Positions 49,503-57,284 are shown, numbered from the stretch's first letter. The stretch is 64,000 bases of DNA from a virus (IMGVR_UViG_3300022848_000777:64001-128000); one strand, 5' to 3'. The notes: generated by a model not told the origin, from the sequence alone. Program-made: numbers and translations.

Positions 49503-49683
49503 GTTAGGCACAGTTTATTATGGACTACGAAGAAAGAGCAGAACACGAAATTGAACTGATAGAACAAGACGAAACATTAAGTGAAAAGAAAAAGTCTCAA
49601 GCAATAGAAGATGTTATACAAGAACTCCGAGAAGAACTCGAAGACCATAAAAACGGTAGGTAATAATTTTTATTGTGCCTAAC
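49503..49683 (+). mobile_element. cassette C1 carrying a 47-aa acidic ORF (49520-49663)
   Basis: GTTAGGCACAGT ... ATTGTGCCTAAC. Confidence 0.8.
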
Positions 49684-49697
49684 ATAAAATAACAGAT

Positions 49698-49982
49698 ATG
49701 AAAAATAGTAATTTAGCATTATACGGAATACAGTCAAATATGGTAGGAGCAGAAACCTACGCACAAGCTGGCGACTTTGAGTTGTCTACGAAAATACATA
49801 TCGTTGATGTCTTATTAGCCAACGGAAGTCATTTACATATAGAATGTAATACTGAGGCACAAGCTAGAAGTATCTTGTCGACTTTATACTACTACTCTGT
49901 TAACGGTAATGATAACAACGTTGTAGAATTTGACTTTGACTTTACATTAAACTACTTGCCGATTGAACTTGCACTCAAATAA
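49698..49982 (+). CDS. hypothetical protein
   Basis: 94-aa ORF. Confidence 0.6.
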   Translation: MKNSNLALYGIQSNMVGAETYAQAGDFELSTKIHIVDVLLANGSHLHIECNTEAQARSILSTLYYYSVNGNDNNVVEFDFDFTLNYLPIELALK

Positions 49983-50363
49983 ACAAATAAACACAATAAA
50001 TTTTTAAGATATGGAAGAATTGCTATTAAAGAATCAATTAGTTATAATGGAAGCTATGGTTAAGAATAGATTCAATCAAGACAAAGATGGATTGATAAAA
50101 CAGATTAAAATAATAAAAGAATTCTTAATTAATATTGAACAAATTTGAATTATGGGTAAAATGACAAAAATGACAAAAATTGATGCGGCAATAAGAGATA
50201 CCACATTATATTTTAGGAGAGCAGAAGAGAGTATAATGTTGCTAATGAGAGAGAAGAAAGTTTTACAAGAAAGGCTTAGTGCTCTTGAAGAGATAAAAGA
50301 TAGCGACCAATATGAATAATTTTTTTGTAACTTTAACGGATTGAATAATAACAAAACTTAATT

Positions 50364-50771
50364 ATGAAATTACACGAAATTATTGAAGTACACGACAAAC
50401 CTTATTTTAGAAAAATGAGAGTAGAGAGTGGATTTATGTACAATTTTTGGGATGTAGAAAAGGATGACTACCAACAAGAATGGACTTTTGTGCCATACTC
50501 AAGCGAACTGGTTAAAAATTTCGAACACCGCATAGATACAACGGTAGGACTTTGGGCAACCGATGGGCCTGATTTAATCACAACTAAAAATACGAGAGAA
50601 GAATCAATAAAATGGTGGGATAGTTTAGGTTCAAACCCATTACTAGGGTTAATTGAAAAAGGTGAATTAACTACTAAGTATTTTGGCCCTGATAGAATCC
50701 CTGAATTATTAACTGGAAGAGAAATTGAAAAAATGTACGTATCTGAAAATGAAGATGACGTATATGTGTAG
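50364..50771 (+). CDS. hypothetical protein
   Basis: 135-aa ORF. Confidence 0.6.
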   Translation: MKLHEIIEVHDKPYFRKMRVESGFMYNFWDVEKDDYQQEWTFVPYSSELVKNFEHRIDTTVGLWATDGPDLITTKNTREESIKWWDSLGSNPLLGLIEKGELTTKYFGPDRIPELLTGREIEKMYVSENEDDVYV

Positions 50772-50799
50772 TTTTTACCCGACTAAATAAAACCGAATT

Positions 50800-51108
50800 A
50801 TGGAAGAATTATTAAAAAAAATAGGGCAGTTGCAGTATGAAATCAGTATATTAGATATTGATGAAGAGACATTAACAGGTGTTGATATTAGAACAGAAGA
50901 ATTAAAAGAGATGATAATCCAAGGGCAAGCATTACCTATAGATAGTGTTAACGTTTCGTTTGAATACGAAATGTTTATAAATGATAAAGGAACACCATTT
51001 GAAATGAACACTTGGATACCAATATCCAACGATAGAATTAAGGATGTTAGCAGGATAGATGAATACATTGAAAACGGTTTATTAAGAAAAATAGTTAATA
51101 AACGCTAA
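50800..51108 (+). CDS. fusion ORF reading into cassette C2 (50947-51109)
   Basis: GTTAACGTTT at 50947 pairs with AAACGCTAAC at 51100; stop lies inside TAAC. Confidence 0.65.
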   Translation: MEELLKKIGQLQYEISILDIDEETLTGVDIRTEELKEMIIQGQALPIDSVNVSFEYEMFINDKGTPFEMNTWIPISNDRIKDVSRIDEYIENGLLRKIVNKR

Positions 51109-51294
51109 CGATTGGGCTATGAATTTTAAAAAATACGGTTATGGAAACTAAATATTATATAGCGATTGGACTTTTATTAATATCGATGGTGCTAACTTTT
51201 TTTGTACCGCTTTGGTTTGAATTAAGAGAGCACAAAAAGTGGATGAAAAGGAACGATTTTTAATTTTTACCCGACTAAATAAATAACTAAACAA

Positions 51295-51567
51295 ATGGTA
51301 GCAATAGAGTATTTTGATAGATATAGTAGCACAGCAAATGAGCCCGATATAATGGGTAGATGGGCAAGAACGGCCATCTATAAAAACATCAGAATAGCTT
51401 GGATAAGTAGAATAGAAAATAAAGATGAAATTATTTTTAGTGTTTCTTGCCATTTCCCAACAATGCAGAACGATACAGCAAACGAACATAAACTATGTTT
51501 TAGTTTGGATGAAGCAAAAGAGTTTGTACAAGATCGCTGGGAATGGTTCTTAAATGAGGTTTCTTAA
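51295..51567 (+). CDS. hypothetical protein
   Basis: 90-aa ORF ending at a left half-site (TAAAC GTTAAGGCTATG). Confidence 0.65.
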   Translation: MVAIEYFDRYSSTANEPDIMGRWARTAIYKNIRIAWISRIENKDEIIFSVSCHFPTMQNDTANEHKLCFSLDEAKEFVQDRWEWFLNEVS

Positions 51568-51642
51568 ACGTTAAGGCTATGTGTAGTGCCAAAATTTTAA
51601 AATAAAATTAGGTAGTTCAACATATTATTCGTATATTTACAA

Positions 51643-51980
51643 GATGTATAGAAGTCGGCAGCGAATCGACTAATACATTACAGACATTCTTGTACGTCCA
51701 ATAGCCTTTGTGCTGTATCGCTCGGAATGTTTAATTGAAAGCCGCTAGAGAGGGTTCTTAGAAAGCGGCACGGGTTTGCGAAAGGAACGCCCACTAAGAA
51801 GGTTTATTACACAACCTATAGAGTTCTGAGCATCGGATTGTAATTAAACGAAGCACCTAATAACGAAGGCTCAATGAAGGTTAAGCATATCGTTTAAAGG
51901 TATCGCCCTACGTAGTTTCGCAACGAACTTCTTAGGGATTGCTATACCTTTAACTCAGGTCTAAATCAGGTATAGCATAG
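51643..51980 (+). ncRNA. candidate structured non-coding RNA
   Basis: Promoter (TTAGG 51608, TATATTTA 51632), no ORF of 60 aa or more, raised GC and at least seven helices. Confidence 0.6.
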
Positions 51981-52129
51981 TATTTAAAGTGTACACTAAC
52001 TAGTTTTTCTTTAGATTGGGTGGTAATTGTAAAAAATTACAACAATAAACTTGTGTAGTATAATTTAATTGATTACATTGGTCAAAGATAAGGGGGAAAC
52101 TTAACCCAATAGTGAATTAAATTAAATAA

Positions 52130-55752: not shown

Positions 55753-55762
55753 TATTAATGCT

Positions 55763-55816
55763 AACGTTAAGGGTATGGTGTCGTTTGCTTTTCGCAAATG
55801 CACTATAACCAGTGTT
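55763..55816 (+). other. attC-like site S5
   Basis: AAC..TATGGTG..GTTTGC / GCAAAT..CACTATA..GTT. Confidence 0.85.
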
Positions 55817-55855
55817 GTGCATAGTACGGATTATTAAAAACTAAAATTAAATAGA

Positions 55856-56599
55856 ATGGAAATAAACAAAATATATAATGAAAATTGCCTTGATACAATG
55901 GCGAAAATGGAAGATAACTTTATTGACTTAATAGTTACATCACCACCTTATTTTAATGCTAAAGAATATTCACAATATGATAGCGTTTCAGAATATATGA
56001 GACAAATGAAAGATATTTTCTTAGAAACTGAAAGGGTGATTAAAGAGGGTAGGATGTGTGTTATAAATATTAGCCCTGTACTTGTTGCTAGGGAAAAAAG
56101 AAGTAAACAAAGCTATAGAATACCATTACCTTATTATTTTGTGCCTATGATGGAGGAAATAGGCTTTGAGTTTTTAGAGGACATTATATGGGAAAAGCCA
56201 GAAGGTGCTGCTGCAAATAGAAACGGTGGTTTTTTTAGGAGTAGAAAACCATTAGCATACAAGCCTAATATAGTTACAGAATATATATTAGTATTTAAGA
56301 AAAAGTCAAATTTATTAATAGATAAGTATTTAAAAAACAATAGCCTTGTTAGTGATGGTTATGAAAGGAGTAATATTTGGAAAATACAACCACAAACGAA
56401 AAGTAAGCGCCCAGCACCTTTCCCTGATGAAATTGCTGACAAATTAATAAAATACTATTCGTATGAAAATGATTTAGTTTATGACCCGTTTATGGGAAGT
56501 GGAACAACTGCAAAGATGGCTAAACTAAATAATAGAGATTTCATAGGTAGTGAAATGGTTGAGGATTACTGTGTAATTGCAAATGAACGATTAAAATAG
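55856..56599 (+). CDS. beta-class N4-cytosine/N6-adenine DNA methyltransferase (cassette C9, 55814-56612)
   Basis: TSPPY followed by DPFMGSGTT; GTTGTGCATAGTAC / GTATTATGCACAAC termini. Confidence 0.92.
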   Translation: MEINKIYNENCLDTMAKMEDNFIDLIVTSPPYFNAKEYSQYDSVSEYMRQMKDIFLETERVIKEGRMCVINISPVLVAREKRSKQSYRIPLPYYFVPMMEEIGFEFLEDIIWEKPEGAAANRNGGFFRSRKPLAYKPNIVTEYILVFKKKSNLLIDKYLKNNSLVSDGYERSNIWKIQPQTKSKRPAPFPDEIADKLIKYYSYENDLVYDPFMGSGTTAKMAKLNNRDFIGSEMVEDYCVIANERLK

Positions 56600-56609
56600 T
56601 ATTATGCAC

Positions 56610-56654
56610 AACACAAGGCTAAACTGTCGTTTTCAATACAGTTTAGTTAATGTT
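56610..56654 (+). other. attC-like site S6
   Basis: AAC..GCTAAACTGT / ACAGTTTAGT..GTT. Confidence 0.85.
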
Positions 56655-56683
56655 ATCTTTTGTTAATAAGTAAACTAAAAATT

Positions 56684-57040
56684 ATGAAAACAATTAATTT
56701 ATTTGGCAAAGAAATGCCAATTGAGAAAGAATACGAAGCAGCAGTTTGTGTATGGGAAACGATTGGTTCAAGTATTGATGATTATGAAGATGTTAAAATA
56801 AAACTAGGACAGAAAATATATAATATTAAAATATTGGAAACTGGTAGTATTATTTTTACAACATCACCAGATAGTAAAATTAATATGGTGACAATGTTTC
56901 CTCAAATGTTTGGATTTCCAAGCGATGAGCAACTAATTGAAGTTAAAAATTTAGAAGATATTATAAGCAAATCACATGATAAAATAAATGATATTTATAA
57001 TAGTATTGAACGAACTGGTTATACTGATATACCGTTTTAA
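56684..57040 (+). CDS. hypothetical protein
   Basis: ORF from ATG 56684, right after S6. Confidence 0.65.
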   Translation: MKTINLFGKEMPIEKEYEAAVCVWETIGSSIDDYEDVKIKLGQKIYNIKILETGSIIFTTSPDSKINMVTMFPQMFGFPSDEQLIEVKNLEDIISKSHDKINDIYNSIERTGYTDIPF

Positions 57041-57051
57041 AACTAAATATT

Positions 57052-57252
57052 ATGAATGAAGATATTATAAAATTAAAAAACTTGATTGAAGAGTATGAAG
57101 AACTTTGTGAAGAATCTGAACAAATGAGCAAAGATTGGGAAAGTGGTTCTGAATGTGAATCGGCAATGGCAGACCCTAGCGACAAATATATGAAGGGTAT
57201 GCAGATTGAAGAAAAGCGCAATGAAATTAAGAGTGTCTTAAATACACTCTAA
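57052..57252 (+). CDS. hypothetical protein ending at a left half-site
   Basis: Stop inside CTCTAAC, then GTTGAGTATAAC. Confidence 0.65.
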   Translation: MNEDIIKLKNLIEEYEELCEESEQMSKDWESGSECESAMADPSDKYMKGMQIEEKRNEIKSVLNTL

Positions 57253-57284
57253 CGTTGAGTATAACAATTAAAAATAGATAAATT

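Follow-up and report, generated by a model that had tools for sequence, protein, structure and literature searches.

A probable orphan array of integron-like gene cassettes, with relatives that end at a Xer-like recombinase, in a 175-kb phage genome

Hypervariable regions of small orphan open reading frames serve lytic phages as a store of host-takeover and anti-defence functions, and the route by which these genes are exchanged is mostly unexplained. A run of small open reading frames (ORFs) in the marine phage genome IMGVR_UViG_3300022848_000777 raises this question in a concrete form: were its genes gathered as mobile cassettes and, if so, what moves them? The genome is an IMG/VR virus record of 174,750 bp (GC content 32%, CheckV completeness 90%), and the window analysed here is the 64,000-nt stretch formed by its bases 64001-128000; positions below are those of the window. 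Every sizeable ORF of the window is on the + strand, and the run lies between a gene for a MoxR-like AAA ATPase (47918-49243) and a DNA-polymerase-exonuclease-like gene (57285-58226). An initial annotation of this DNA had read the run as an integron-like cassette array in a jumbo phage. The latter label is wrong, the genome being 175 kb and so under the usual 200-kb line. As to the array, we consider it probable that the window carries an orphan (recombinase-less) set of gene cassettes, integron-like in kind and belonging to a family present in other phages, which would have been moved by Xer-like recombination on a folded strand.

Complementary arms and base-exact joints

Five of the units, C1, C3, C4, C8 and C9, consist of an ORF bracketed by a perfect 10-bp inverted repeat, GTT-N7 on the left and N7'-AAC on the right, where N7 is a cassette-specific barcode; in each, a G.T wobble follows at position 11 and then 1-3 further pairs. 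The remaining three of the eight units, C2, C5 and C6, are imperfect or decayed. The GTT.../...AAC termini that had been ascribed to all cassettes are thus perfect in the five and imperfect in the three. Likewise, the 10-14-bp length given for them is right for the first 10 bp, beyond which lies a fixed wobble rather than simple complementarity.

Could such arms have arisen by chance? Perfect GTT..AAC 10-mer pairs spaced 60-1600 bp apart occur 20 times in the whole 174,750-bp genome, and 5 of these fall within the 7.1 kb of the array. Such pairs have a frequency of 0.09 per kb across the genome and of 0.082 per kb over 1.47 Mb of loci from 80 relatives, a background at which ~0.64 pairs are expected in 7.1 kb (Poisson P ~5e-4). 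All five pairs bracket an ORF, and none overlaps another. These densities, together with a control in which the arms were reversed but not complemented, lead us to reject a chance origin. A conserved 14-mer, AACGTTTGGCTATG, was tried separately as a simple repeat and rejected; it was not above chance at 3 mismatches, and the motif is too degenerate for such a test.

Homologues of the window's cargo genes are essentially absent from 80 syntenic relatives, and therefore no orthologous comparison of the window array is possible; a megablast search of 47-60 kb against cultured phages likewise gave 0 matches. The arms themselves recur. The left arm of C1, TTGTTAGGCACAGTT, is found again in IMG/VR contigs, in which C1 arms bracket more than 45 different cargo ORFs: in 54 fetched stretches an ATG stands at most ~10 nt past TTGTTAGGCACAGTT and GTGCCTAA follows 150-990 nt downstream, with differing cargo ORFs between them. 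Scanning these loci gave a general form, with left arm GTT-N7-G-T, right arm A-T-N7'-AAC and the fixed G.T wobble at position 11. Among IMG/VR phage contigs, 110 non-redundant cassettes had perfect N7 pairing, with 55 distinct barcodes, against 3 in the control of reversed, uncomplemented arms. These cassettes have a median length of 245 bp and a single ORF, with its ATG 17-18 nt after GTT and its stop codon usually in TAAT or TAAC. AAC/GTT and a purine at position 4 are invariant in the family. After filtering for ORFs, perfect cassettes numbered 89 against 7 in the control, while arms with one mismatch showed no excess (114 against 112), and we conclude that complementarity is all-or-none. 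Barcode intermediates of the G.T type were also sought, and no excess of one-mismatch arms of any kind was found.

The relation between barcode and cargo can be followed across contigs. A compensatory barcode pair, AGGCGCA and AGGCACA, occurs on homologous cargo, and homologous methyltransferases of the C9 type carry different barcodes (AGCAGAA, as in locus L202, versus GTGCATA); no close relative of the C9 methyltransferase with C9's arms was found, the nearest having other arms. The window barcodes ATACCCT and ATAGTGA recur in IMG/VR contigs with different cargo. The C4 barcode carries another cargo in L090, and L151:6175-6720 has the arms and second ORF of C3 but another first ORF and unrelated flanks.

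The family is also present in a cultured phage. Polaribacter phage P12002L, a siphovirus of 48.7 kb, contains family cassettes and hairpins, with the same architecture around its methyltransferase genes, and the only proteins that it has in common with the source phage are methyltransferases and one Mom-like protein. This Mom-like DNA-modification protein, encoded from genome position 51355 onward (~12.6 kb before the window), is 42% identical to P12002L gp53 over 230 amino acids (aa). Methyltransferases recur as cargo, in the window (55856-56599), in L088, L103, L107 and L202, and as gp35, gp36 and gp38 of P12002L, which points to anti-restriction functions being traded via cassettes. Cargo-free or 'empty' cassettes of the form GTT-N6/7-(C)GTTT joined to TAAT-N'-AAC occur as well (L004:7163-7191, L093, L111, L131, L161 and L166), and their conserved loop, CGTTTYAATR, is equal to the two inner flanks, left and right, placed end to end. 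A pattern scan of 185,579 species genomes found the element solely on contigs of metagenome-assembled genomes of scattered taxonomy, and these are probably mis-binned phage contigs. The family circulates among phages of marine Bacteroidota.

Where does a mobile unit begin and end? Cassettes that are 96-99% identical across contigs part at the first base past AAC. Of 18 homologous cassette pairs, 11 have an identity of at least 80% over the 40 nt upstream, and 1, a same-locus pair, shares the 40 nt downstream. Homology between contigs tends to stop at TAAC, with the start codon as a second such point. Three filled/empty pairs, L191/L200, L151/L155 and L155/L151, have flanks 97-100% identical and inserts of 949, 2692 and 1021 bp, and in all three the insert has the hairpin first and arm-TAAC last, with the joint exactly after TAAC. 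It follows that the mobile unit is a hairpin plus a cassette, with its joint 5' of the hairpin on the coding strand. The alignments show the moved unit to comprise hairpin, GTT arm, ORF and arm-TAAC, the hairpin travelling with its downstream gene. In the family as a whole, it reads on the coding strand as a hairpin of 45-95 nt, GTT-N7-GT, a short leader with usually one small ORF, and AT-N7'-(T)AAC. The proposal of mobile cassettes with exact boundaries is borne out by both kinds of comparison, the divergence of near-identical cassettes after AAC and the three filled/empty pairs. Two details of that proposal have to be replaced: the + strand joint lies after the right arm's AAC instead of at the left arm's G/TT, and the layout is the mirror image of an integron cassette.

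A Xer-like recombinase at the ends of related arrays

In L090 and L142 the array is accompanied by a co-oriented gene for a tyrosine recombinase of 266-270 aa (PF13495 and PF00589), which starts 52 nt past the last cassette in L090 (IMGVR_UViG_3300042879_004946; gene at L090:4348-5148, - strand) and ~1.1 kb past the last strict cassette in L142. More generally, the arrays of other phages have a co-oriented Xer-like recombinase gene at their end, 52-65 nt beyond the last TAAC. The linkage is directional. All 118 strict cassettes counted at 54 IMG/VR loci with recombinase homologues are upstream of the gene and on its strand (0.51 per kb); the 335 kb downstream have 0, as has the opposite strand. 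The best model for the enzyme is of the XerA type (187-195 bits against a cut-off of 220); the integron-integrase model TIGR02249 scores 158-162 bits against a cut-off of 265, in two stretches, the best covering model positions 6-179 of 315. With a mirror layout and a recombinase under the integron-integrase cut-off, the system is distinct from classical integrons, as the initial annotation had suggested.

A conserved site, TATNATATAT, follows the last TAAC ahead of the recombinase gene. Across L237-L289 (for example L237:2461-2512) the site between the last cassette and the recombinase start reads TAAC and then TAT(C/T)ATATAT(C/A)NAC, a candidate for either an attI-like primary insertion site or the recombinase promoter. 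True jumbo phages, on contigs of 276-465 kb, carry many recombinase-bearing arrays (L239, L242, L257, L260, L278 and L287). Recombinase homologues with 39-51% identity are present in 133 of 401 sampled Bacteroidia genomes, a count that includes the unpublished genome G096, otherwise unused here; the fetched DNA upstream of 20 chromosomal homologues (40-51% identity) contained no cassettes.

The source genome differs from these loci. Searches of it found no tyrosine recombinase (PF00589), serine recombinase, HUH Y1 transposase, reverse transcriptase or HNH nuclease, and the window array has no terminal TATNATATAT site after TAAC. With neither recombinase nor terminal site, the window array is an orphan member of the family. 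The integrase reported as missing is thus indeed missing, and the recombinase that was to be looked for alongside the cassettes does exist, at array ends in other phages rather than in the source genome.

Orphan arrays are common in complete phage genomes that have no recombinase, and this would suit a mechanism that needs no dedicated enzyme: palindromes would extrude or stall replication, junction-resolving nucleases would cut them, and repair would draw on co-infecting genomes, leaving breakpoints at the bases of the hairpins. P12002L indeed encodes a NinG/Rap junction endonuclease and several HNH nucleases, although the source genome has no PF01844 HNH match. Breakage and repair would leave unexplained the perfect complementarity of barcodes over 100-1300 bp, the invariant TAAC joint on one side only of the hairpin and the linkage to a recombinase, and we regard it as very unlikely.

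Hairpins and cassettes of the window

Strong hairpins of the family are more stable on the coding strand in 43 of 59 cases, by a mean difference of 3.4 kcal/mol, and 131 G.T pairs are oriented G(5').T(3') while 65 have the opposite orientation. In an RNAalifold consensus of 28 short hairpins, the two sides of the stem bring TAAC opposite GTTA, and compensatory changes are seen at 12 of the 17 pairs. Hairpins with a bulged T and unpaired linkers are present in the family. The hairpins preferentially fold on the coding strand.

Six hairpins were said to lie between the units of the window, and folding agrees, with z-scores of -1.0 to -5.1. Four of the six have z between -3 and -5, and five of the six favour the + strand by 7-10 kcal/mol. 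All are on the + strand. The one leading C3 (52138-52183; z -3.4; -17.1 kcal/mol on the + strand against -7.0 on the - strand) comes after AAAAC followed by GGTTTGGCTATG and has TATA-N6 in its 3' arm ahead of GTT. Between C3 and C4 (52660-52740, fold 52665-52737; z -3.8; -20.7 against -12.9 kcal/mol) there is a ~19-bp stem with a bulge and G.T pairs and a 34-nt loop, and between C5 and C6 (53280-53357; z -2.1; -20.9 against -10.8 kcal/mol) there are two hairpins with two stems. In the hairpin leading C8 (55413-55459, fold 55413-55463; z -5.1; -14.9 against -6.2 kcal/mol), a degenerate copy of the C8 right arm, GTATTAGCTAAT (55403-55414), pairs with the C8 left arm to form the outer stem. The hairpin between C8 and C9 (55766-55813, fold 55771-55810; z -3.1; -18.8 against -11.1 kcal/mol) has a bulged T in its 5' arm. 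Finally, GGCTAAACTGTCGTTTTCAATACAGTTTAG, 3' of C9 (56613-56655, fold 56617-56647; z -1.0), is of the CGTTTYAATR-loop type and aligns with 27 hairpins of other phages, including P12002L.

Genes and preferred folds all lie on the transcribed strand and G.U-compatible wobbles are common, which also fits a regulatory explanation. The units would then be cassettes of the PeSL kind, whose hairpins terminate transcripts or are cut by RNase III, whose promoter (TATA-N6-GTT-R) lies in the hairpin's 3' arm and whose arms pair the ends of the mRNA for stability or translation, shuffled by homologous or illegitimate recombination and selection. The motif T(-10)ATA(-7)..G(-3).T(-1)GTT-R is conserved whether coding or not, position 4 is always a purine, as for a start nucleotide, the ATG comes 17-18 nt past GTT and the right arm holds the stop codon. 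PeSL motifs, moreover, mediate mini-circle shuffling in T4-type phages (PMC2839356, PMC4122927). Against this stand the directional recombinase linkage (118 cassettes upstream, 0 elsewhere), the base-exact TAAC joints between unrelated flanks that offer no usable homology, an N7 that lacks the G.U or one-mismatch intermediates expected of a drifting RNA stem, and left arms that are frequently inside ORFs. The hairpins also lack the T-run seen at ordinary terminator-like sites such as 54291-54313; a terminator-like scan made no call at the inter-cassette hairpin positions, and a sigma-70 promoter scan found no excess of matches. We therefore judge a regulatory explanation unlikely, while an RNA-level, PeSL-like role is possible as a second function.

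The hairpin at 54291-54313 is followed by T8 and gives an example of a conventional terminator in the source phage, unlike the inter-cassette hairpins. Rfam searches (the whole window at gathering thresholds, and 49200-52300 at E<=1) returned nothing relevant, and a tRNA scan returned none.

The cassettes, all on the + strand, begin with C1 (49503-49683), whose left arm GTTAGGCACAGT (49503-49514) and right arm ATTGTGCCTAAC (49672-49683) enclose an ORF of 47 aa (49520-49663). It is preceded by a 260-nt non-coding leader (49244-49502) with a C6/G8 hairpin at ~49290-49320 and a terminator-like hairpin at 49421-49439; the final 60 nt of this leader resemble an element found 5' of C1-type cassettes in many contigs (..GCCTAA(A)C..N20..GTTAGGC). 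The decayed C2 (50947-51109) has its left arm GTTAACGTTT in frame within an ORF (50800-51108) and a right arm AAACGCTAAC with the stop in TAAC; its arms have a single A.C mismatch, and the junction motif AAC plus GATTGGGCTATG comes next. C3 (52187-52659) has perfect arms, GTTATACCCTGT and ATAGGGTATAAC, and two ORFs, 52261 (or 52303)-52500 and 52500-52658. C4 (52741-52937) also has perfect arms, GTTATAGTGAGT and ATTCACTATAAC, around an ORF of 52 aa (52778-52936) with its stop in TAAC. In the decayed C5 (53096-53279), the left arm GTTACCCCTCGT is in frame within ORF 52940/52946-53278 and the right arm is ATGGGGGGTAAT; the unit ends in AAT, not AAC, and all non-Watson-Crick positions of its arms are G.T or T.G wobbles. 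C6 (53358-53598) has arms GTTATAAAACGT and ATGATTTATAAC, with one A.A mismatch at position 9, and ORF 53376-53597. The arms of C8 (55460-55765), GTTAGCATTAGTAC and GTATTAATGCTAAC, form 10 perfect pairs, a G.T and 3 more pairs around an ORF of 83 aa (55501-55752), and C8 and C9 have the leader AGTACGGATTATTAA in common. C9 (55814-56612; arms GTTGTGCATAGTAC and GTATTATGCACAAC) carries an N6/N4 DNA methyltransferase of 247 aa (55856-56599; PF01555 at 9.5e-44). The remark that stop codons often fall in TAAC holds for C2, C3, C4, C5 and C6, where they lie within TAAC or TAAT.

Other small + strand ORFs have no intact arms, and their span (49698-55408) interleaves with the cassettes and hairpins listed above: 49698-49982, 50011-50148, 50152-50319, 50364-50771, 51141-51263, 51295-51567, 53621-53941, 54132-54275, 54352-54690, 54690-54824, 54835-54999, 54987-55190 and 55220-55408. 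None has a Pfam or PHROG function, the one PHROG match being to a family of unknown function. A junction motif, AAC or AAT followed at the joint by G(G)TT..GGCTATG, trails several window ORFs, after 51109, 51571, 52135, 52937, 53598 and 53953. From a junction of TTAAAC with GTTAAGGCTATG to the leading hairpin of C3, 564 nt (51572-52135) are free of ORFs; this segment has no Rfam match and a fold z of only -1.98, and it could be what is left of a decayed unit, or else an uncharacterised RNA.

It is common for a left arm to fall in frame within an ORF, GTT then coding for Val, as in 50800-51108 and 52940-53278 and also in L090, L142 and L211 (P12002L gp37), and a leader peptide ending in ..L-N-I-S-D before V, or similar, precedes them. 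The TATA-N6-GTT DNA motif is identical whether coding or not, which suggests fusions of an N-terminal leader to a cassette.

Possible mechanism and known systems

XerCD recombines the folded single-stranded CTX-phage genome at dif. By analogy with this and with IntI on attC, the coding strand may, once folded, be the substrate of the family recombinase. One binding arm would consist of the duplex of the two arms (AAC/GTT plus barcode), the hairpin stem would be the other half-site, and the enzyme would cut at the arm's 3' edge, after TAAC. An excised circle would carry a fully paired site, while junctions within the array would be mismatched. The barcode would matter as a duplex only, which would fit the conservation of its pairing and not of its sequence. 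CTX integration resembles this scheme in that a Xer-type tyrosine recombinase works on a one-strand hairpin and makes a single strand exchange where a binding arm has its edge; it is unlike it in that host enzymes take a whole phage genome into a chromosomal site, with no gene-cassette array. Because the source phage has no recombinase, its cassettes would be either frozen after acquisition or serviced in trans by a co-infecting phage.

Several points weigh against this account. Neither the source genome (90% complete) nor P12002L nor any of five large relatives encodes a family recombinase, and several array-bearing phage genomes rated complete by CheckV are also without one; with no recombinase in the genome, cassette movement in the window's own array is putative. 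The folding of single strands, the place of the cut in TAAC and the passage through circles are steps that we infer from sequence. Cargo has also been swapped inside conserved arms, at ATG and at TAAT, which the model does not explain, nor does it explain the invariant G.T wobble. In some units a coding leader takes the place of the hairpin and continues in frame into the arm, C2 and C5 being examples; the model does not account for these units either, and the hairpin cannot therefore be an obligatory half-site. Finally, the positions of the arms, one in the 5' leader and one at the stop codon, leave room for a role at the RNA level.

The closest prior art concerns clusters of attC sites lacking integron integrases (CALINs), which Qi et al. 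2023 reported in virulent phages (PMC9892861). Their P12002L_attC1 (TGCTAAC...GGCTAAACGGTCGTTTTAATGCCGTTTTAGCC...GTTAGGC), annotated as a CALIN attC and detected by HattCI but not by INFERNAL (PMC9892861), is a hairpin of the present family, 95.5% identical to one in L088. The literature searched holds no published description of the family beyond that single hairpin, so the suggestion that the system is possibly undescribed applies to the family and not to this one member.

Might the array, then, be a true integron fragment, with bona fide attC sites from bacterial integrons moved by a host integron integrase? The AAC/GTT cores and the GCCTAAC/GTTAGGC of C1 fit RYYYAAC/GTTRRRY, HattCI called the P12002L hairpin an attC, and IntI1 recombined the neighbouring predicted site P12002L_attC2 (PMC9892861), which contains GTTAGGC, the reverse complement of the C1-type right arm. 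However, the family hairpin P12002L_attC1 was the only one of six sites without a confirmed attI1/attC recombination junction in the IntI1 assay (PMC9892861). TIGR02249 is above cut-off in just 1 of the 401 sampled Bacteroidia genomes, and the family recombinase reaches only 158-162 of the 265 bits. Barcode positions 5-7 are not RRY, the hairpin stands before the gene, the ORFs are inverted relative to attC polarity, and in the 185,579 species genomes the element was confined to the probably mis-binned contigs. We give a host-integron origin scarcely any credence.

The family nevertheless resembles integrons and CALINs in many ways. In both, the cassettes of an array are small, mostly hold a single ORF and are of unknown function, methyltransferases apart; conserved AAC/GTT triplets close the imperfect hairpin sites, and the ends of a cassette pair with each other and not with their neighbours'. 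Folding is strand-biased, with the joint at the folding strand's 5' AAC, comparable to bottom-strand cleavage between AA and C. A tyrosine recombinase of the Xer/IntI clade stands at one array end, and orphan arrays exist in both. Unlike integrons, the family has a recombinase of 266-270 aa under the integron-integrase cut-off, downstream of and co-oriented with the array rather than upstream and divergent. Its hairpin leads the gene in all 3 filled/empty pairs, with ORFs inverted relative to attC polarity, whereas attC lies 3' of the ORF; its crossover follows AAC on the coding strand rather than falling at G/TT of R'; and its arms are 10 bp with a fixed G.T wobble and a free 7-nt barcode in place of RYYYAAC. 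Start and stop codons are built into its arm flanks, and it was found on phage contigs, not on chromosomes, in the searches made here. Read on the opposite strand, the family layout equals an integron cassette with inverted ORFs, and Qi et al. appear, from their primer design, to have treated the strand consistent with that reading as 'bottom' for P12002L_attC1.

A second comparison is with the PeSL and PmSL motifs, a stem-loop with a promoter, through which mini-circles are shuffled in T4-type phages (Arbiol 2010, PMC2839356; Comeau 2014, PMC4122927). These too are intergenic stem-loops beside expression signals, between small ORFans in hyperplastic regions of large lytic phages, with indels and gene swaps at the motifs and proposed circular intermediates (PMC2839356, PMC4122927). 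They differ in being similar direct repeats thought to recombine by homology, whereas the flanks of family joints are unrelated beyond TAAC, and they have no gene-flanking inverted barcodes, invariant 4-bp joint or dedicated recombinase. A PeSL has its stem-loop just ahead of a sigma-70-like early promoter, with a Shine-Dalgarno sequence and start codon next; the family has a stem-loop and a TATA-N6-GTT motif, and sigma-70 promoter matches are not in excess.

We lean, with moderate confidence, towards a more specific form of the preferred reading, in which the family is a phage-borne integron analogue that evolved apart from IntI. Its arrays would end at a short Xer-like recombinase and consist of mirror-image, hairpin-first cassettes. 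Owing to the free 7-nt barcode, the site would become fully paired in the excised circle alone, or where distant parts of single-stranded DNA pair with each other, and orphan arrays would be serviced in trans at co-infection.

Such a family would provide a defined, recombinase-linked and base-exact means of exchange across unrelated phages, from a 49-kb siphovirus through the 175-kb source phage to contigs of more than 300 kb. The rule GTT-N7-GT ... AT-N7'-AAC is a simple one for delimiting accessory genes in viromes, and the cultured phage-host pair Polaribacter sp. IMCC12002 and P12002L is available for testing. The system is also relevant to how integron-type single-strand recombination may have arisen from Xer-like enzymes. 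If the reading is true, lytic phages of marine Flavobacteriia that are otherwise unrelated draw on a common pool of accessory and anti-defence genes.

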